Source: Leucoraja erinacea (Eukaryota). From it: a DNA stretch of 64,000 bases. Under the pieces are notes generated by a model that was given only the letters and a program-made list of their open reading frames with translations, searched no databases and had not been told where the DNA came from. The stretch is taken from the NCBI RefSeq assembly GCF_028641065.1, contig NC_073401.1, forward strand, positions 19,592,001-19,656,000. Reading direction: 5' to 3'. Positions 7,116-60,545 of the stretch are shown in pieces; the stretch's first letter is position 1; every line of letters begins with the position of its first letter. Made by a program: the position numbers and the translations under genes.

Positions 7116-7282
7116 NNNNNNNNNNNNNNNNNNNNNNNNNNNNNNNNNNNNNNNNNNNNNNNNNNNNNNNNNNNNNNNNNNNNNNNNNNNNNNNNNNNNN
7201 NNNNNNNNNNNNNNNNNNNNNNNNNNNNNNNNNNNNNNNNNNNNNNNNNNNNNNNNNNNNNNNNNNNNNNNNNNNNNNNNNN
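7116..7282. other. assembly gap (N run)
   Basis: 167 N. Confidence 1.
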
Positions 7283-12108: not shown

Positions 12109-15100
12109 GTAAGAGAATGGTATTATGTCATTTAATTTTACAAACTCATTAGAGTGTTTCAACCAAGTAAACCATGGTTTAAAAGAGCAGTTTGCTTTAT
12201 CTTTTTTCAAATGTGCTGGCATTGGGCAAAAGACATGGGGTACTTTTCCCCCCCGTGGTGCCATTCTTCAGATACTTTACACCAAACATCATGTAAAAAT
12301 GAGTCATTTGGTGGTGAAGGTGTGCGCTGCTTTCTGATGGCCCCTGTTACTAAACATTGACAATTTCAGGTTGAGAATAAGGGATGGGAGTGTGGTGTGA
12401 GTGCAGGAAGGAAATCACTTCATGTTAATGCTCCGCTTCAAATTACAACCGCATCTAGACTAATGAGCCTGCAATGCAAACCTAATTAACCAAATAAAGA
12501 CCTTGTTGGAAAGCTATGCAAGATACTGACGGAAGTTGTCCTCACCAGATGGAAGCTTTGTAATTCAATCTGAGCTTGTCGTCAGATTTAAATCCAGCTC
12601 AAAGCACAATATTTATCTCTCCGTTTCCGGTGAATGTTTGAGAGCAGATTCATCATTGGCGGTTAATCGATCAGAGTTTGGAGCACTCACTGAGTGGGAG
12701 TGAGCTATGTATCATGGCAGTGAGGGGGGGGGGGGGGGGGGAGAGAGAAACCTACAGCATTGGGGTAATTGTGTTGCTGAAGGGAGTGACACTGAAGAAG
12801 TAGTGCCTAGTGCTTACTGTTCTTGGAGATCACAGGACTGAGGTATGGGCTGGAGTAGACTAACGTGAGAGGGAGGGAGTCATAATGCCAGAGATTCCTA
12901 CACTGAGTCAAGCCAGAAGAGGAACCTCGAGGGTCAGGGGTTGTGGTGGATATATTGTTGTTCCTTCTGGATCCACAGAAATCTTAAAAACATCTGGACT
13001 GTTTTTTGAGCTTCATGTGAACAAGGAATTCCATTGCACCCTGGTGTATACGACAACAAACAAATCTGAATCTGAGGAGCCAGTGGAGGTCACTTTCAGT
13101 GAAGATGGGTAGAGGGTGTTCCGTGCATGCTTCACCCAGACGTACCTTCAGTGTGAGCTCGGGTCTGTTCGCTGGCATTGCGCCCTGATTGGGGGACAGT
13201 CACCCATGTGAAAGTCCCGTTCCCCGTGGATGCGTCGGGAGCAAATACTAAATGTTCTCTCATGTTTTTCAGGCTGTTGTGATCTTGCTCGGATTGGGTG
13301 AGGTTTGGCAGCCTGTGAGGTGTCGCACTTTTGGAGGTTGAATATCTGGGGAAAGTAAATAGTTAATGGCACGCCCCTTGACAGCAGTGATGTACAGAGG
13401 TCCAAGACCATAATTCCATGATAGTGGCAACACAGGTAGATAGAGTGGTAAAGAAGGCGCATGTTCTGCTTGCCTTCGTTGGTCAGGGCATTGAGTAAAC
13501 AGGGGATTAGCTACAGGGAAAGGTTGGGCAGACTTGGATTGCTTCTCTGGAACGCCAAAGATTGTAGGGAGACCTTATAGAAATAGATAAAATTATGAGA
13601 TGCAGAGATAGGGTTGACAGACGGAAACTTTTTCCCCCAGTATGGAAAAAACATACCACAGGGCATAGCTTTAAGGTGAAAGGAGCAAATTTCAAAGGAG
13701 ATGTGCAGGGCAACCTTTCTTTAGACTGGTGAGTGTGAGGAACACACTGCCAGGAACGGTATTGGGGGCAGAGATGAAATTGGCATTTAAGTGACTATTA
13801 GGTATTTGCAGGGAATGGAGGGATATCTCTCCATATCACTTAAATGCCACGTTCATATCTACCTCCAACACCTCTCCTGGCAGTGTGTTCCTGGTCCCAC
13901 ACATTACAAACTTCTCACGTCAAGACTAGTTTAATGTTGCATTGTGTTGGGGCATGGACATTGTAGGCCAAAGGACCTGTTCTACCGTTCTATGGGTGGG
14001 ACCCGTAAATATCAAGGTCATTTCATCTTGCTGAGGTACCAGAACTTACCTCTGTTCTGTCTGAGTCTTGGACAATACTGCCCTCCACAGCGTCAGTCCT
14101 ATATTAAACTTCAGTTCTGGACGTGCCTTTCCAGTAACAACCCCACAGCAGAAGAGTCCAGATCCAAACACACCCATCACTTCCTTCTAAACTGTGGGAT
14201 GTATTTACTTACTAAAGGCATGAAGGACTCTGCTAGAAATGCAGCTGTTGCTGCACAGCATGAGACTCACTCTGGGAATAAAATGCTCAAGGACTGTGAA
14301 GGATTAACAATTTATGCTAGAGTTGAAAAGTGCATTCAGGAACGCAGTTCTCTTTCTGAAATTTTTTTAATTGAACAATTATGGGGAGAAATTTGATTGT
14401 GCTGATGGACAAATTAATTTGAACTGGAGCAGAACTGTACCGTTGTCTCTGCACACATCACATTGTGGCTCCAGCCTTTGTCAGCCCTGTTCAGCATACA
14501 TTTGCAGGCTGTTACTTGCACAGCTGCAGGAGAGGGGCACAGACTGAAGCCATGGCCAGCATCTCCTACAGGGAGGGAAATGTCGGAACCAAGCCTTGCA
14601 GACCAGGATCAAAGGTGGCAGTCAGATGCCACTAAATGGCAGAGGGAGGTTCTCCAGGGGGCTGGGGGCACCACTGTGACCCAGTCTAGTCTCGGCAGCA
14701 GCTGGTTGGCACGGTTATCTACAGGTTTGAAACATGGGTGCAATGGTAAAGGAAGTTTAATGATCGGGATGCATACATCACCAAATCAGTTGGGCTTAGC
14801 GCAGAAAGGGTGACCACAGAAAGGGCGACCATTTTGTGTGAATTTGCGCTCTGTCCACCACAGCCATTTACAGTTCCTGTTTGCCAGTCATATTAATTCC
14901 AGTTCCCATTTTCGCACTGACCCGTCTGTTCTCAACCTCCTCCACTGCCAGGGTGAGGCCAAATGTAAACTAAAGGAAGAGGCTGCCTGGGTAGTCTACA
15001 ACATGAAAATTGAATTCTCCAATTTTGGGCAACCCTCATCCAATCTGTCTTCTTCTCTCCTCCTATCTACCCATGTCCCCTCACATGTTCTTTACACCCT

Positions 15101-16497: not shown

Positions 16498-16665
<168 letters not shown>

Positions 16666-21540: not shown

Positions 21541-21746
21541 GTAGGAAAGAACTGCAGATGCTGGTTTTAAATCGAAGGTAGACACAAACTACTGGAGTAA
21601 CTCAGTGGGACAGGCAGCATCTCTGGAGAGAAGGAATGGGTGCTGTTTTGGGTCTGAAGAAGGGTCTCGATCCGAAACGTCACCCATTCCTTCTCTCCAG
21701 AGATGCTGCCTGTCCCGCTGAGTTACTCCAGCATTTTGTGTCTACC
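21541..21746. mobile_element. Penelope-like terminal repeat fold-back with central hammerhead motif
   Basis: ~65-bp near-perfect inverted arms; core CTGAAGA-AGGGTCTCGATCC-GAAAC-GTC at 21654-21681. Confidence 0.75.
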
Positions 21747-22094: not shown

Positions 22095-22430
22095 AATTCA
22101 TAAGACATAGGAGCAGAAGTAGGCCATTCGGCTCATCGAGTCTTCCCCGCCATTCAATCATGGCTGATCTAACTTTCCCTCTCCACCTCATCTCCTGCCT
22201 TCTCAGTGGCAATGAATTCCACAGATTCACCACCCTCTGACTAAATAAATTCATCCTCAACTTTCTAAAGGTGCGTCCATTCTGAGGCCATACCTTCTGG
22301 TCCCAGACTCTCCCACTAGTGGAAACTTCCTCTCCTGTATCCCGGTCTTTCACTATCCGGTAAGTTTCAATGAGGTCCCCCCCCTCATCCTAAACTCCAG
22401 CGAGTACAGGCCCAGTGCTGTCAAATGCTG
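22095..22430 (-). mobile_element. CR1 LINE 3' fragment
   Basis: NLFSQRVVNLWNSLP on the minus strand, plus CR1 3' UTR. Confidence 0.75.
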
Positions 22431-23122
22431 GCTGTTGGGTCTGACTCCAAACATTGGGGTGTTACTCCTGTGATATCCATTTAATTCGTTTTACAGGGTC
22501 TCCTTGATATCACACCCAGTCAAATTCAGCTTCAAGGGTGAGGGCTGTCACTCTCACCTCCCCTCTTAAATTCATGCACTTGTTCCACATTTGTACAAGG
22601 CTGTGCGAGTTCCCTCACGATGAGAACGATGACCTCCTTCTCCGCAGAGGATTCACTGTGGTGATGTTGTAGTTAATGATTAACGCAAAACGCTCGGCAC
22701 TGGGACAAGGTACAGCTGGATTGCATTAAGGGAGTTCAAACCCACGTCCCACACGCTTTCAGATAATCCTGCGGCCTGATACTTGTGGGCGTTTGGATTT
22801 GGGTTCACACAGCAAGCACTGGACCAGAATCCAGACACTGGTCGGCTAGGGTCTCTGGGCCTGGGGATTGCCAGCCTGGGAGTAGATCTGGGTTTGTGTG
22901 TTCATGTTGGTCGGATCATTTTCATCATTGCCCGTGCCACCTTCTCGTTGTGCTCGAAGGCAAAGCTCCTGCCGTAAGAGGAAACATCTCAGAGAGGCGG
23001 GGGGGAAGGAGATGTGGAACTGCAGCCAGTTGTTGAGGACATCCTTGAATGCCCCGTTGAGAAGTGTGCAGATGCCCAGAGTGCTGTCCGCACCACCTCC
23101 ATGTTCCTTGTGGTGTTGGAAC

Positions 23123-23156
23123 CAAAGATACTAGAGGAGCTCCTCTAGTGTCTTTG
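23123..23156. mobile_element. 34-bp palindromic transposon remnant with 8-bp TSD (P-element-like footprint)
   Basis: GTTGGAAC | CAAAGATACTAGAGGAG CTCCTCTAGTGTCTTTG | GTTGGAAC. Confidence 0.75.
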
Positions 23157-23989
23157 GTTGGAACATACGTGGGGCTGCAGCGCCCCCTGGTTGGAGATTT
23201 TCATTCTCATTCATGTCAGCAATGCCACAGAAAATTAACCACGAGCATTACATCCCAATCAAACCACAACGATGACTAGGCTGTAGTATAACACTAGCCT
23301 AAGCATTTCACACGATTGTCAAACTATGAAAAAAGATCACCTCTGATTATTCATAGATATGATCGCCTGCTAAACAATATTTTTTTTCCTTTAGTTTATT
23401 GTCACGTGTGCCGATGTACACTGAAAAGCTTTTTTGTTGCATGCTAATCAGTCAGCAGAAAGACAAAGATGATTACAATTGATCCATTTACAGGGATAGA
23501 TACATGAACAGGGAATAACGTGTAGTGCAAGGTAACGCCAGCAAAGTCCGATCAAGGGTAGACCGAGGGTCACCAAAGACGTAGATCGTTGTTCAGCACT
23601 GCTCTCTGGTATAACAATAGAATATTGAATACACACAACATTTCAAGCTAGCATAATTCTTGAACTGTCCAGAACTGAAAACAATACTTCAAATGTTGCC
23701 GAACCAAAGCTTGATAAAGCTGCAATGTGACTGGCCAATGTTTACAATTGGTATTGGCTTATTATAGTCACGTGTACTGAGGTACAGTGAACAGTTTTGG
23801 CTGCGTGCAATCTGGTCAAATCATACTGCACTTGAGTCCAATCATGCCGTACACGTACAACAAAGTGCAAAGAAACAATATCCGAGGGCAGAATATAGTG
23901 TCACAACAGTTATAGTGTTACAGGTATAGAGTAAAAGGGCAAGGTCGGCAATGAGGTCTGGAAGATCAGGACTACATCCTAGTCGTCAT

Positions 23990-28134: not shown

Positions 28135-29024
28135 TAGTTTTCAAGCTTCTATACCTTTTTCCCAATGGCAGGGGTGAAATGAGTGCGTGGCCAGCATGGT
28201 GTGGGTTTCTGATGATGCTGGCTGCCTTTTTGAGGCTGTGACTCCGGTAAATCCCTTTGATGGGTCCAGGAAAGATCTTTGGAAATATACATGCCCAAAT
28301 ATTTGAAGCATTTTGACTCTCCACCATAAACAGGATTGTGGGTCCTCATCCTTCATCTTCAAGGGCAGTAATGGCTGGTCATTAAGATCCAAGTGAAGAT
28401 CAGGTGATGCAAGGGGCCAGAGAAATCAGAGGCAGAGTACTTGCATCTCATTTGGGGCAACAAAGAATTGTGATAAAAGATGAGAGATTCCATTTTAAAA
28501 ATTGACTCCATGTTGTTTTGTGAAAGGACATCAATGGGGTCCAGGATCTTGAGGAAGTGTCCAGTATAAACGAGCCCCATTTGTCCTGCTGAAATTGAGA
28601 CCATCAGCATATAAATGATTGAGAAATCCAGCGGGAATATTTATCAAATCACCTTTTAATTCAACCCACGATATTGAAATAAACATAGACATACAAGATG
28701 GAGATGCTGGAATCTTGATCAAAAAAACAGTGCTGGGTGAACTCAGCAGGTTAGTCAGCATCTGTGGAGAGAAATGGACAGGCAACATTTAGGGTCAGGA
28801 ATCTGAAGAAGGGTCGAGACCCAAAATATCATCTGTCCACAGATTTCCTCCACAGATGCTGCCTAACCCACGGAGTTCCTCCAGGAGTGTGTTTTTTTGA
28901 CAGTGAAATAAATGTAATTATAAACAAAAAACTAAATCACAATAATAAAGGAAAATGTTTCTTGGATAAATGGCATCAATGCAGCCATGGAACCAAATCT
29001 GAAAAATTCATCTACAACCATCAT

Positions 29025-45265: not shown

Positions 45266-46239
45266 ATAGGGAGGTTGCACGGCAGTTGGGTCAGGACCCG
45301 TGACCCGTACTGTTGCCACACAACGCCAACTGGAGTACATGCGATGAACTGCAGGTAAGCACTTACCATTGTTTCCAGCGTAGCGGGCCTGTTAAAAAAC
45401 GCTGAAATGGTAAATTTTTGCGCTGTAAATAATTATGGAAATCGGGGTAAGCATGAGGGACATTTATCCTACTTCTGAATTCCAAAAGTGATAAATCTGG
45501 CTGTAAAATTTAAAATTCGCCCACCCATGGTTCTCAAGTGGGTTTTTACATGCAAAAAGAAAATGCTTCTGAAGCAAAATTTATCATTAAAAAAAAAATC
45601 GCAAACCATACGTGGGTTTTGAATTACATTTTACTCAGATGCAAGCCAAGGAATATCTTTGAAAGGGAGTGGGTGTTTAAGCTGTCAGGACATTTTATCA
45701 TTTGCCAAAATATACATCTCAATACATAATGATAGAAAACTTACTTTTCCACACACCACTGGAGATGTTTTAATGATAAATTTAACTTCAGAAGCGATAA
45801 AATTTACAGCCAGATTTATCACTTCTGAAACTTTTTAGATACCAAAGGAATCAAGAAAAAACACAAATAATGCCCTACTGTTGATGAAATGCAGTGAGCA
45901 AATGCGATAATTGCCAATATTTTCAATCTTGATATCTGCACGGTCAATGTTCGCCAACCACTTTAATTTTTGTTGCCCCTTCAGCTCTCGTTTCTCTACT
46001 GTAATTTCTCCTCACTTTTGGAATTCTGCAGTAGGGTAAATGTCTCTCACGCTTATCCCGACTTCCACAATTATTTACAGCGCAAAAAAATGACCATTTC
46101 GACGTTTTTTAACGGTTAAGAAAGTACGCGTTTCGTGTATTAACAGTATATGCCGGAAGCGGCCATGTACACCACATGGATTGAGCTGCTCCGTGTGTCA
46201 AGCTCTTTGACCTGATGACCTTACGTGCAACCTCCCTAT
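45266..46239. mobile_element. non-autonomous DNA transposon with 16-bp TIR ATAGGGAGGTTGCACG and internal inverted repeats
   Basis: Perfect terminal inverted match. Internal inverted pair ~45390-45495 / 46012-46115. Confidence 0.75.
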
Positions 46240-46250
46240 AGGCTTGTGTC

Positions 46251-46275
46251 CAAAGGTACTATAGGAGCATCTTTG
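46251..46275. mobile_element. 25-bp transposon remnant with 8-bp TSD (P-element-like footprint)
   Basis: CTTGTGTC | CAAAGGTACTATAGGAG CATCTTTG | CTTGTGTC. Confidence 0.7.
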
Positions 46276-46479
46276 CTTGTGTCTCTCTATACCTTTACTA
46301 TCCAGGCATATGCCCAAATGCCATTTAAACTTATTTTAACTGCACCATCAACACCTCTCGATGCCCAGCTCTCTCTCAGTGAAGAACTTGCTCCTTCAGG
46401 TCTTGCTCCTGTTTTCAACTTATTCACACTCTGGGACAGGAGCTAGTGTCATCTGATGGAAAATCAGTAGCTGGTGCAC

Positions 46480-47040
46480 ATCTGATCCACGGGGCGGAGA
46501 GAGCGCCACCAGCCGGCGGGAGGTGCAGGCACCGACTGTAGGAGGTGAGGACCAAAGATCATAGTGCACCGCCCGCCGGCAGGGGGTCTGATCCCCGGGT
46601 GGAGGGGCGGAGACAGCGCCGCCCGCCGGCAGGAGGTCTGATCCCAGGGGCTGAGAGTGCGCCGCCCACTGGCAGGAGGACCGCGCCGCCACTCCTCCGC
46701 TCTCCGCCCCCGCCTGAGCCCGGCAGGCCGCGCGCCGCTCGTGTGGCCGCAACATGGATGTGAACGTGACGGACAGCGAATGGCGGACCATTGCTTTCCG
46801 GCAGAAGGTGGTGGCGCAGATGTGAGTGCGGGGACGCGGCGCGGTGCGCATCGTGCTCCCGGCCGGGCACTGACGGCGGAGAGAGGGGGGTGCGAGGCCT
46901 ACCCGGCCTGCAAGCCGCGGGCTTTCCTGGCGACTGGTAGCCGTCAGCGTGATGGGTTGAGGCCGAGGGGGGAAATCCACGCTGACGGGCGGGCGAAAGT
47001 CCCGAGATAAAACGGCGGGAGCTACAGATCCCCGTTCCCA
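46480..47040 (+). promoter_or_regulatory. MED15 CpG-island promoter
   Basis: CpG-dense, several GC boxes (GGGGCGGAG, CCGCCCC), surrounds the start codon. Confidence 0.8.
46754..46821 (+). CDS. MED15: Mediator subunit 15 exon 1 (start of KIX domain)
   Basis: MDVNVTDSEWRTIAFRQKVVAQ(I); 68 nt; gtgagt donor. Confidence 0.93.
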
Positions 47041-52612: not shown

Positions 52613-52962
52613 GTTATTAGACAGGAGCTAGAGAGGGTAGATTAGGAGCAGTTGTTATTGGTTAAATCCACAGTTCTGACATGTTGGAGTCGTTTAAGGC
52701 CAGCTGATCAAAGTGCAGGATCAGCATGTACTAGCAAGGAGGATGGATAAGGATGGCAAGGCAAGGAACCACAGATGACCAATGAGGTTGCAAACTTGGT
52801 CAGGAAGAAAAAGGAGGTTCAAGAAGATTGTATCAGATGGGATAATGAGATATATAAAGCGAGTCGGAAAGAACTCAAGCGGGCAATTAGAAGGGACAAA
52901 AGGGGCCATGAAATGTCATTGGTGAGTCAGATTTTAAAAAATCCCAAGGTTTTTGATATGTG

Positions 52963-55113
52963 CAGTGTTCACCATAATGTTTGGGACAAAGACCCATCAT
53001 TTATTTATTTGCCTCTGTTCTCCACAATTTGAGATTTGTAATATAAAAAAAATCACAAGTGGTTAAAGTGCGCATTGTAAGTTTTTATTAAATGGTATTT
53101 TTATAAATGTTAGTTTCACCATGTAGAAATTACAGCTCTGTTTATACACAGTCCCCCCCCCCGATTTCAGGGCACCATAATGTTCGGGACACATGGCTTC
53201 ACAGGTGTTTGGAATTGCTCAGGTGTGTAAATGCCTCCTTAATGCAGGTATAAGAGAGCTCTCAGTACCTCGTCTTTCCTCCAGTCTTTCCATCACCTTT
53301 GGAACCTTTTATTGCTGTTTATCAATATGAGGACCAAAGTTGTGCCAATGAAAGTCAAGGAAGCCATTATGAGACTGAGAAACAAGAATAAAACTATTAG
53401 AGACATCAGTCAAACCTTAGGCTTATCAAAATCAACTGTTTGGAACATCATTAAGAAGTTCTGAGCTTACTAATCGACAGATCAGAAACACTCTTCAGGA
53501 GTCTGGAGTGGATTTGTCAATGACCACTGTTCGCAGAGGACTTCATGAACGCTGCAAGTTGCAAACCACTGGTTAGCTACAAAAATAGGATGGTTCGGTT
53601 ACAGTTTGCCAAGAAGTACGTAAAAGAGCGACCGCAGTTCTAGAAAAAGGTCTTGTGGACAGATGAGACGCAGATTAACTTATATCAGAGTGATGGCAAG
53701 AGCAAAGTATGGAAGAGAGAAGGAACTGCCTAAGATCCAAAGCATACCACCTCATCAGTGAAACAAAGTGGTGGGGGTGTTATGGCCTGGGCACGTATGG
53801 CTGCTGAAGATACTGGCTCACTTATCTTCATTGATGATACAACTGCTGGTGGTAGTAGCATAATGAATTCTGAAGTGTATAGACACATCCTATCTGCTCA
53901 AGTTCAAACAAATGCCTCAAAACTCATTTGCTGGCAGTTCATTCTACAGCAAGACAATTATCCCAAACGTAACTGCTAAAGCAACAAAGGGGTTTTTCAA
54001 AGCTAAAAAATGGTCAATTCTTGAGTGGCCAAGTCAATCACCCGATCTGAACCCAATTGAACATGCCTTTTATATGCTGAAGAGAAACCTGAAGGGGATT
54101 AGCCCCCAAAACAAGCATAAACTAAAGATGGCTGCAATACAGGCAATAGACAATACACAATAGGTGCATTTGTTTGGCGGCGCGACTCACCCGTTGCAGC
54201 GGCCCCCAGTCTTGTCTTTTTTTAAATTTTTTGTCTAGTTAAATGTAGTGTTGGTGTTTTTTAATACTGGTTTTAAATGTGTATATGTGGGGGGGCGGGG
54301 GAAACTGTTTAAAATCTCTTCCCTGTACGGGAGACCCGACCTTCTGTTGTCGTTGGGGCCTAGCACCGTGGAGCGGCCTCCAACCTGAATGACCCGGGGG
54401 CCCGGGAGACTGCGGAGCTGCGGACTACTCACCATTGTGGGGCTGGCTGGCCTCGGAGCGTGGGGAGTGGTGGTGACTCGCTGGGTTCACTGTGATGGAT
54501 GTTTGTGTGAATTAAATTGTGTGTATGTCTAGGAAATTGTCTTTGTATGGCTGTGGAAATGGAATTTCGTTTGAGCCTCACTGAGAGTCTTTAAGAGTCC
54601 TGTCTAGCTCTCTCTTGAAAGTATCCAGAGAACCGGCCTCCACCGCCTTCTGAGGCAGAGAATTCCACAGACTCACAACTCTGGGTGAAAAAGTGTTTCC
54701 TCATCTCTGTTCTAAATGGCTTACCCCTTATTCTTAAACTGTGGCCCCTAGTTCTGGATTCCCCCAACATCGGGAACATTGGCCTGACAGAGTATCAACA
54801 GAGAAGACACCCAGCAACTGGTGATGTCCATGAATCGCAGACTTCAAGCAGTCATTGCATGCAAAAATACTAATCATTGCTTTCATTTACATGACACTTT
54901 TGTGTTCCAAACATTATGGTGCCCTGATATGGGGGGGGGTCTATGTATAAACACTGCTGGAATTTCTACATGGTGAAACCAAAATGTATAAAAATAGCCT
55001 TTATTAAAATCTGTTAATGTGCACTTAATTTCTATTACAAATCTCAAATTGTGGAGTACAGAGACAAATAAATAAATGATGGGTCCTTGTCCCAAACATT
55101 ATGGAGGGCACTG
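52963..55113 (+). mobile_element. Tc1-family IR/DR transposon, decayed DD34E transposase, with nested retro-insertions
   Basis: ~230-bp TIRs starting CAGTG, each with a repeated ccataatgttyggga DR. HTH (IRDISQTLGLSKSTVWNII), VLWTDE, QQDN-34aa-E (WPSQSPDLNPIE); stops and frameshifts. Confidence 0.92.
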
Positions 55114-57746
55114 TATGTTTAAAAACTCGAGGGTGACTAGGGAGACTGCTCAAGGATAAAGGAGGATATGCCTGCTTGGAGTCAGTGGGTATAGGTGAGG
55201 TGCTAAATGAATACTTTGCATGTGTATTTACTGAGGTGAAGAACTTTGAGTAGAGTGAGATGAGTGTGGAGAATACAAATGTGCTAGTGCAGTTTGAGAT
55301 CGAGAAGGCGGTGATGTTGAGCTGCTGAAGAGAATTAACGTAGAAAAATACCCGGAATTGTAGGGATCCGGAAGGGAAGTAGAGAGAATCCAGGGAACAA
55401 TAGGCCGGTGAGCCTCGTATCAGTGGTAGGGAAACAATTGAAGAGAATTCTTCAATATAGGATCTACTCCCATTTGGAAGAGAATGGGCTAATTGGGGAT
55501 AGCCAGCATGACTTTGTACATGGCAGGTAATGTCTTACTGACTTGATTGAGTGTTTTGTTAATGTTACGAAGGAGATTGATGAAGGTAGGTGCGGTGGAT
55601 GGTGTACACATTGTACACATAAAAGAGCATCTCTGGAGAACATGAATCGTTGATGTTTCTGGGTGGGGCCTTTCTTCAGACTGATTGTTGAATTATTTCA
55701 GCACTTTGTCTCCTTTTGCGTATTAAACAGCAAAGCCGTTTTTTGGTTTCTACCAAGTTTTTAAGGTGATTCCGACGTGTAAAATCTGACTTACATAAAG
55801 GTTTACAAAATGTAACCCTTGCGTATCTCGGGGAGTGTCTGCATGTAAAATTATGCGTGGCACAATTAGGGTAGACAGTCAAACCCTTTTTCCGAGTGTA
55901 GAAATGTCCAACACTGGAGGGAATAACTATAAGGTGAGAGGGGGAAAGTTTAATGAAGATGTGTGGTGTTTTTGTCCAGAGAGTGGTGGGGGCCTGGAAA
56001 TCATTGCCAAGGGTGGAGGTGGAAGCAGATACTTTAGTGACGTTTAAGAGGCAAACATTGTGGGCTGAAAGGCCGATTCCTCTGATGTATTGTTCGATAT
56101 TTTATGTAATACTAATATGCAAGGGCAGTTTGAGATCAAGCAGGATGTGGTGTTGGGGCAAGTCAAGAGCATTATGGTGGATTCATCGCCAAGGCCTGAT
56201 GAGATCTATCCCACGTTAAGAAGAGTAAGCAAGGACATTACAGGAGCCTTAACAAAGGACTTTTCAACTTCTCTAGCCACAGGCGAGGTCTCACAGGACT
56301 GGAGGGTAGAAATGTTATCCCTTTGTTATGAAGGGAAGCAGAGATAATCAAGGCAATTATAGGCTGGCGAGCCTCACATCAGTGACAGGAAAGCTATTGG
56401 AGTGGATTCTTCATGAGAATTTACACTCATTTAAGGGAATGGGCCGATTAGGGATAGTCAACAATGGCTTTGTACACAGCAGGTCATATCTTACAAAATT
56501 GATCCAAGTTTTTGAGGATGTTACGAAGTTGATCAATGAGGGTTGGGTGATGGATGTTGTCTACATGAATTTTAATAAGGCATTTGATAAAGTACCCCAT
56601 GGTAGGCTGATCTAGAAGATGAAGATTCACGGATTTCATGATGATTTGGTTGTATGGATTCAGAATTGGCTTACTTGTAGGAGACAGAGGGTTGTGGTGG
56701 AATTATTCTAGCTGAAGGTCTGTGACCAGTTGAGTTCCTCAGGAATTCGTGCTGGGGCCATTGTTGTTTGTGATGTATATAAATCACTATCGTAAATAGA
56801 AATGGGTTGGTTAGTAAGTTTGCAGACATCAGCAAGATTGCTGGTTTTGTGTTGTGATTTGTGTGGGAATGCTGTCAAAAGATACAGCGGGATATAGACC
56901 AGTTACAGAAATGGGCAGAGAGATGGCAGATGTAGTTTAATCCGAGCAAGCGTTAGGTGTTGCATTTCAGGTGGTCGAATTTAAGGGTGTACGGTTGATG
57001 GCAGGATGCTTAACAGCATTAATGTACAGAGGGAGCTTGGGGTCCAGGTCCATAGCTCCCTGAAAGTGGTATAATTAGGTAGTGGTAAAGAAGGCATATG
57101 GGCGGCTAACCATCATTGGTTGGGGCTGAGTATAAGAGTCAGGAAGTCATGATGCAGTTCTATAAGACTCCGGTTAGGCTGCAGTTGGAGTATTGTGTAT
57201 AGTTCTGGTTGACACAATGCAGGAAAGATGATGGGACTGGAGAGGGCACAGAAGATGTTTACCATAGTGCTGCCTGGATTAGGTTGTAGGATATACAAAG
57301 AGAGGTTGGACAAATTTGGACTGTTTTCTCTGGAACGCCATATGTTATATGTTGGCTTTGGTGTTCACATCCAAGTTTCAGCATCATTATGGGTGGGGAT
57401 GCTCTGAGAGATGCCTCATTCTGTTAACCATTAATTGTTCACCTATTGTTCACGATAGGATGTAGAAGGCAGGAGTTCAACAATGAGATTGTTTAGCTAC
57501 ATCTATTGCTTTGTGATGGAGGCGGGCTACCATTCTGCTTCTGGTTGGCTAACAGTACATTGTGCAAGCCCAGTTTGGACCAAATGCCCCATTTCCCACG
57601 ACCACATCCCAGATTAAATCCTGCATGAAGATCTTAATTGGGATATTATAAAGCATTGTGATTTTCCACAGTAGTTGTGCCTCCCCGACTTGCCTGTTTC
57701 CGTTTAGCATGCCGGCGTTGCTGATTGCTCTTTTTCCTGTTTGCAG

Positions 57747-59767: not shown

Positions 59768-59980
59768 TAACTGCAGATGCTGGTTTACTTAAGATAGACA
59801 CAAAAAGCTGGAGTAACTCAGCGTGTCTGGGAGCATCTCTGGGGGAAAAGGAATAAGTAATGTTTCGGATTGAGACCCCCTTCTTCATTCTGCAGAAAGG
59901 TCTCGATCCGAGACATCACCTATTCCTTTTCTCCAGAGATGCTGCCTGACCCGCTGAGTCACTCCAGTTTTTTGTGTCTA
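59768..59980. mobile_element. Penelope-like terminal repeat fold-back pair
   Basis: Inverted agacacaaaaagctggagtaactcagc arms around degenerate hammerhead cores. Confidence 0.7.
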
Positions 59981-60545
59981 TAAAAGGATTAGTATGCTCC
60001 CTTCCCTTTGGACTATCAAATTCTACCTTTTAAATCTCTCACATGAAGGAAGTCCCAGTCACTATTGGGGAAATTAAACTGCAATACTCTACAATACTCC
60101 TCTGCAATGCTGCTGCTTTACGTATTTTCATGATCTAGCTACACATTTGTTCTTCCATCTCCTATTTGCTATTGTGATGCTTGTAGTCATCATTGAACCT
60201 CATCATAGTGATTGGACATTTCTTATTTTGAGCTATATCCATATTGTCTCCCTGGATGAGCCCTCCAAAATGTCCCCTCAGTGTACAGCTGTAATATTCT
60301 CCCTGAGCACTGGTTCAACTCCCCCAGCTCCTGGAATATTGAGCTGATAGTCTTGCCCTTCTCGCAACCAAGTCTCTAATGTCAACGACAAGAATGTTGT
60401 AAATGAACCAGAGAAAAATCTGGAAAGGAATGGGGCAATGTGAGCACTGGCACTCTTGAAAGGCAGTTTGGGAACTAACAACATTTTGTGATGTATATCA
60501 TCAGAACAGGCGGAGTCTTTGTCATTCTATTATGTGTTTCAACAG

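Follow-up and report, generated by a model that had tools for sequence, protein, structure and literature searches.

What kind of event leaves a short palindrome between two exact copies of an 8-bp repeat in the genome of a skate, and could that event be the excision of a P-type transposon? The DNA analysed here, hereafter the window, is a 64-kb stretch from Leucoraja erinacea. The initial annotation had pointed to one such structure (site 1), which it described as two inverted arms of 17 nucleotides, with one mismatch and no spacer, lying between exact 8-bp direct repeats at positions 23115-23164, and both the description and the coordinates proved accurate. The insert (23123-23156) is a palindrome of 34 nucleotides, 17+17, whose arms read inward are CAAAGATACTAGAGGAG and CAAAGACACTAGAGGAG and are identical at 16 of 17 positions. 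The direct repeat is exactly 8 nucleotides long, with two perfect copies and no possible extension. The insert folds at -11.2 kcal/mol (z = -6.1), a value that none of 200 shuffled sequences equalled.

A second example had been placed at 46243-46283 (site 2). Its related ends and its perfect 8-bp repeat stood up to scrutiny, but the insert (46251-46275) is only 25 nucleotides long and asymmetric, dividing as 17+8 or 18+7, with no 17+17 palindrome, and it folds no better than chance (27 of 200 shuffles equal it). The direct repeat of site 2 can formally be read as 9 nucleotides; the 8-nucleotide reading retains both CAAAG ends. The components of the two sites are listed in Table 1.

Table 1. 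Components of the two palindrome-like inserts and of the repeats that bound them, in window coordinates
Feature	Position	Strand	Basis or resemblance
Site 1, left TSD copy, GTTGGAAC	23115..23122	+	direct reading
Site 1, left stub of the terminal repeat, 17 nt (18 with the central GC counted as shared microhomology)	23123..23139	+	13/17 identity to the 1360 terminal repeat
Site 1, right stub of the terminal repeat	23140..23156	-	first 13 nt identical to the Drosophila 1360/hoppel terminal repeat; 14/17 overall
Site 1, right TSD copy, GTTGGAAC	23157..23164	+	direct reading
Site 2, left TSD copy, CTTGTGTC	46243..46250	+	direct reading
Site 2, long stub, 17 or 18 nt	46251..46268	+	15/17 identity to the site 1 left arm
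Site 2, short stub	46269..46275	-	7 nt identical to the site 1 left end; up to 10 nt with one mismatch
Site 2, right TSD copy, CTTGTGTC	46276..46283	+	direct reading

To see how often such structures arise irrespective of their end sequence, we scanned the window for any exact 8-bp repeat around an insert of 14-60 nucleotides bearing a perfect terminal inverted repeat of at least 5 nucleotides. Only two structures were returned, and these are site 1 and site 2. Across 100 dinucleotide block-shuffles the same scan averaged 0.07 structures, with a maximum of 1, none of them starting with CAAAG and none with 12 pairs or more. Neither site matched anything among 72,556 plasmid and 50,697 phage records, so that a vector artefact finds no support there, and in the GTDB genome contigs, used as a contamination check, there were no matches either to the palindrome or to the 1360 end. 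The palindrome within its target-site duplication (TSD) is a real feature of this DNA.

Pfam matches in the window correspond to carbon-nitrogen hydrolase exons, a gene with a guanylate-cyclase domain, an LSM protein and a Med15 KIX domain, and we take these genes to be UPB1, GUCD1, SNRPD3 and MED15. Site 1 lies between the hydrolase exons (16498-16665; 25478 onward) and its flanks are single-copy within the window. Site 2 is located about 470 nucleotides upstream of the Med15-like first exon and less than 300 nucleotides from a CpG-island-like stretch at the start of that gene, a weak and post hoc association, 9% of the window qualifying as such; a stretch of this type is found near one of the two sites, in a sample of two. 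P elements are described as favouring promoters (PMC7776569). The 14-bp targets that can be reconstructed for the two insertions are self-complementary at 8 of 14 positions for site 1 and at 4 of 14 for site 2.

The surroundings of both sites have features of their own. A coding-looking, single-copy stretch of the hydrolase intron (22430-23200) is interrupted by site 1, with a net addition of 42 nucleotides, a multiple of three. The left flank of the site within this stretch had no homologue in the PDB (two frames), in a word-index protein search (one frame, longer proteins) or in Atlas, in the full HMMER library (one other frame) or in Pfam (six frames), and no empty-site allele came to light by this route. 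A CTCF-like motif occurs on the minus strand at 23179-23193, 15 nucleotides from site 1. It is one of seven matches in the window, about 1% of which lies within 50 nucleotides of such a motif, and the observation was made post hoc; the motif may point to a target site that was accessible. A degenerate tandem array, with units of about 45-50 nucleotides and an internal inverted repeat of 22 nucleotides, occupies positions 46470-46700, directly upstream of the first Med15-like exon. A lone CAAAGATCATAG at 46553, inside this array, was not counted as a site, as it has neither a partner end nor a duplication.

Do the arms resemble the ends of any known transposon? A full-text literature query with 13 nucleotides of the site 1 right arm led to a paper on the Drosophila element hoppel/1360 (PMC13643785), in which the legend of Fig. 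1 prints a terminal repeat of 31 bp. Read inward, the right arm is identical to this printed repeat at the first 13 of 13 positions, and at 14 of 17 overall, while the other long arms agree with it at 13 of 17 (site 1 left) and 11 of 17 positions (site 2). Within the window, the matching 13-mer is found, at up to one mismatch, solely on the two arms of site 1. Setting aside the C, A and G positions, because these are common to many transposon ends, we estimate the chance of a match at the 10 remaining positions at about 1e-6 per comparison, and at about 3e-5 for 9 of the 10, in both cases before correction for the number of repeat families. Three published ends were compared with the arms (1360/hoppel, the D. 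melanogaster P element and zebrafish Pdre2), all of them from P-superfamily or P-like elements. There was no likeness to the D. melanogaster P end (2-4 of 17) or to the 13-bp Pdre2 end given in PMC10983969 (4-5 of 13).

The element 1360 is assigned to the P superfamily (PMC4168063, PMC3698922), and the TSDs reported for this superfamily are 7-9 bp long, with 8 bp for P and 7 bp for 1360 and Galileo (PMC3698922, PMC4168063). The skate sites fall within this range, with a duplication of exactly 8 bp at both, and their terminal repeats are related to one of the three known ends compared, that of 1360/hoppel. The likeness to 1360, hoppel and ProtoP extends to position 18 of the terminal repeat, which is a C in these elements, as is the base that follows the 17-nucleotide arms. 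However, positions 14-17 differ, the hosts are an insect and a cartilaginous fish, and both skate duplications are 8 bp long rather than the 7 bp reported for 1360 (PMC3698922); because of this last difference we keep the skate family apart from 1360. Among vertebrate P-like elements, zebrafish Pdre/THAP9 also has an 8-bp TSD and an enzyme that excises its own element (PMC10983969), but the Pdre2 end is different. In fly cells, excision by zebrafish THAP9 is reported to produce larger flanking deletions than excision by the fly enzyme (PMC10983969), unlike what is seen at the skate sites, and vertebrate enzymes thus need not leave tidy stubs.

Is the form of the inserts compatible with what a P transposase leaves behind? 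In Drosophila, P excision leaves 17-nucleotide 3' tails of the terminal repeat on the donor chromosome, the long staggered cut being described for the D. melanogaster enzyme (PMC7776569, PMC2895639). Table 1 of PMC2895639 gives 66 junctions sequenced from Rad51-mutant flies, among which 19 are perfect palindromes of 30 or 32 nucleotides with intact 8-bp duplications, and one is a 17+1+7 join of 25 nucleotides, the same length as site 2. We coded 45 of these junctions, leaving aside 20 isolates with long microhomology and one with a deletion past the duplication, and in 30 of the 45 the insert measures 25-36 nucleotides. The fly junctions are like the skate sites in having the 8-bp duplication on both sides and fused stubs of up to about 17 nucleotides each, and in including perfect palindromes as well as 25-nucleotide asymmetric joins. 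They differ in their unrelated end sequence and in being laboratory products of Rad51-mutant flies, whereas the skate sites are scars carried in the standing genome of a vertebrate. The P-superfamily origin put forward in the initial annotation is strengthened by these typical insert lengths, as it is by the terminal identity with 1360/hoppel.

The same annotation went further and proposed that the skate enzyme had the very same 17-nucleotide stagger as the fly enzyme, which is more than the data can carry. None of the 66 fly junctions listed in PMC2895639 is a blunt join of 17 to 17 nucleotides, and no insert of 34 nucleotides occurs among the 45 that we coded; the fly palindromes do not exceed 32 nucleotides because they formed by pairing of a 2-nucleotide microhomology (PMC2895639). 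The longest perfect fly palindrome having 32 nucleotides, against 34 here, site 1 calls either for a blunt 17+17 join or for a stagger of 18 nucleotides, and its junction fits 17+17 as well as a 16+GC+16 join made from tails of at least 18 nucleotides. At site 2, an 18+7 division entails two mismatches, versus three for 17+8 or 15+10. Tails of 18 nucleotides therefore suit both junctions at least as well as tails of 17, and the stagger would be 17 or 18 nucleotides if the stubs are cleavage tails. In three of the four arms the repeat ends after 17-18 nucleotides, for which a crude model of uniform lengths from 5 to 30 nucleotides gives a probability of about 0.08 per site, with two sites to draw on.

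We consider it probable, at roughly 70%, that both sites are end-joined donor-site scars of a single P-superfamily family with 1360/hoppel-like ends. The presence of related ends and intact 8-bp duplications at two unrelated loci argues for a transposon origin. An element would first have inserted at each locus and duplicated 8 bp of target, the duplication being what can still be read. By analogy with the Drosophila mechanism, a P-type transposase would then have excised the element by a long staggered cut, leaving some 17-18 nucleotides of each terminal repeat on the chromosome as single-stranded 3' tails. End joining would have fused these tails, with almost no loss in the product seen at site 1 and with a loss of about 7-10 nucleotides from one tail at site 2. 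The resulting germline alleles would have been inherited with few substitutions since, as inert scars presumably too short for transposition.

Alternatively, the parent may have belonged to the P superfamily while the stubs represent the short end of a continuum of internal deletions, which would have arisen either when gap repair from the sister chromatid was aborted or through deletion between long terminal repeats; the arrest at 17-18 nucleotides would then be a coincidence. Aborted synthesis followed by end joining is given as the main repair outcome in wild-type flies (PMC2895639) and as a source of defective P-superfamily copies (PMC4168063), and it can follow excision by any cut-and-paste transposase. 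Site 1 would also suit it, as a 2-nucleotide microhomology join for which at least 18 nucleotides of repeat are needed. We nevertheless regard this explanation as unlikely, because a common stopping point in three of four arms is not what it predicts under the crude uniform model, and because no copies of intermediate length with these ends exist in the 64 kb.

One structure would fit such a continuum. This third, weaker candidate (23259-23326), located 95 nucleotides from site 1, is an imperfect palindrome of 52 nucleotides, flanked by 8-bp repeats that differ at one position; but for one inserted base its left end is similar to the site 1 arm, and its folding z-score is -2.05. With a null mean of 0.067 per window (30 shuffles) it is borderline, and could be an older stub with a templated insertion or a product of chance. 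If real, it would exceed the 17-18-nucleotide limit and would favour the continuum left by aborted gap repair.

The initial annotation had looked to longer elements with the same termini and a P-transposase reading frame, and the 64-kb window has none to offer: these ends do not recur in it, together with a matching duplication, on any longer element, and a Pfam scan of 537 complexity-filtered ORFs of at least 50 amino acids returned no relic of a P or hAT transposase. A relaxed search counted 43 end-like sites, compared with 19-41 for 30 mononucleotide shuffles, and outside the arms of both sites none scored above 14 of 17. That search also brought up a pair of ends 1,024 nucleotides apart (1808-2831), which we judged to be due to chance, with 10 of 13 end matches and two mismatches in the duplication.

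A THAP-derived relic lies next to site 2. This non-autonomous element of 970 nucleotides (45268-46237) has terminal repeats of 14 nucleotides and a 2-bp duplication (AT or, alternatively, TA), contains the beginning of a THAP gene in two head-to-head copies, one at each end, and terminates 5 nucleotides before the site. Its two full-length Leucoraja relatives both combine PF05485, PF13613 and PF13359 (THAP, HTH_Tnp_4 and DDE_Tnp_4) and lack the P domain; we take the association of PF13613 and PF13359 to denote the Harbinger/ISL2EU type. We rejected this relic as the parent of the stubs on the grounds of its different ends, its 2-bp duplication and its relatives without a P domain. One transposon fragment of the window shares 80% identity with a Rhinoraja longicauda (Rajiformes) protein, which is itself 86% and 76% identical to two L. 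erinacea proteins. In a Rhinoraja record the THAP of the relic is fused to a cdk2ap1 domain, possibly through exonisation or as an annotation artefact.

Other repeats in the window include an element of about 850 nucleotides (420-1271) with 60-nucleotide inverted ends and TAA/TTA beside termini starting with GGG, presumably Harbinger-like, and a decayed Tc1-like transposon (52951-55125), whose inverted ends are long and which retains fragments of HTH and DDE_3. Hairpin-like elements of 140-190 nucleotides with long inverted arms are found at 572-712, 13738-13892, 21577-21746, 28721-28896 and 59794-59981, most of them from one abundant repeat family. An assembly gap of 167 N lies at 7116-7282.

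Could the parent have been a hAT element of which aborted gap repair or internal deletion spared only the ends? An 8-bp TSD, as seen at both skate sites, is typical of hAT elements, and hAT ends can agree at the first two and the fifth bases. Since hAT shares it, the 8-bp duplication is not diagnostic of P. The window, as noted above, shows no parent transposase, and hAT elements are present in all vertebrate lineages surveyed in PMC4350176, where P is patchy and recorded from platyfish and coelacanth. The skate sites are also like hAT and MULE footprints in their long target duplications and in being, in appearance, the end-joined donor sites of a cut-and-paste transposon (PMC5499845). However, with hAT and MULE transposases it is the flanking DNA that becomes hairpinned, while the ends of the transposon are set free (PMC5499845), a difference that the initial annotation had stated correctly for hAT, and terminal-repeat stubs are therefore unexpected from either. 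Donor repair after hAT excision is not expected to leave a residue of the transposon end, whereas 25-34 nucleotides of terminal repeat are retained here and the duplications are unaltered; aborted gap repair could get round this difficulty. The identity of 13 terminal nucleotides with a P-superfamily end and the lack of any hAT relic among the 537 ORFs of the window also speak against a hAT parent, which we hold to be improbable.

It is more doubtful still that the stubs are themselves minimal mobile elements that inserted as such, as a kind of micro-MITE. Their duplications are intact and they have no longer relative in the window, but one copy has 34 nucleotides and the other 25, and they are not alike in symmetry. 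Furthermore, fly P mobility is stated to require 138 and 216 bp of end sequence, and even the ends of mosquito P-MITEs, which measure less than 100 bp (PMC1562414), leave a total of 25-34 nucleotides far below what P mobility calls for. The least credible explanations are a chance palindrome, a fold-back repair insertion unrelated to transposons, a small-RNA hairpin or an assembly or vector artefact, given the shuffle null, two unlinked sites with 15 of 17 nucleotides in common that resemble a known transposon end, the unmatched plasmid and phage records, and Rfam scores for the miRNA families matching the site 1 hairpin of only 19-26 bits, where the cut-offs are 100-180.

Zebrafish has P-like elements (PMC10983969), and such elements have also been noted in platyfish and coelacanth (PMC4350176). 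In the literature covered, namely titles and the openings of abstracts, neither natural P footprints in a vertebrate nor P elements in an elasmobranch turned up, and a term search of bioRxiv 10.1101/2021.08.01.454642 gave no hits for cartilaginous fish. This coverage, which takes in few subscription papers and neither Repbase nor Dfam, makes for weak evidence of novelty. The mechanism is known from flies; the family and the lineage are apparently unreported. Scars of 25-40 bp probably escape repeat annotation, and they are probably functionless.

How common might such scars be? Counting one non-ascertained site per 64 kb, extrapolation from this single gene-rich window yields about 34,000 in 2.2 Gb (95% range 870-190,000). 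Zebrafish THAP9 has been reported to cut out its element but seldom to re-insert it (PMC10983969). It is conceivable, although we would not expect it, that the skate genome is littered with scars whose intact parents have become rare or have vanished, the family having been purged from the germline by a P-type enzyme that excised and seldom re-inserted, in which case the scars would provide a ruler for a stagger of 18 rather than 17 nucleotides and a fossil catalogue of germline end joining in cartilaginous fish. If the stubs are cleavage tails, the choice between a stagger of 17 and one of 18 nucleotides could be read from genome sequence alone, at the edge of the distribution of arm lengths. 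The reading that we favour, if true, would mean that a P family was once mobile in cartilaginous fish.
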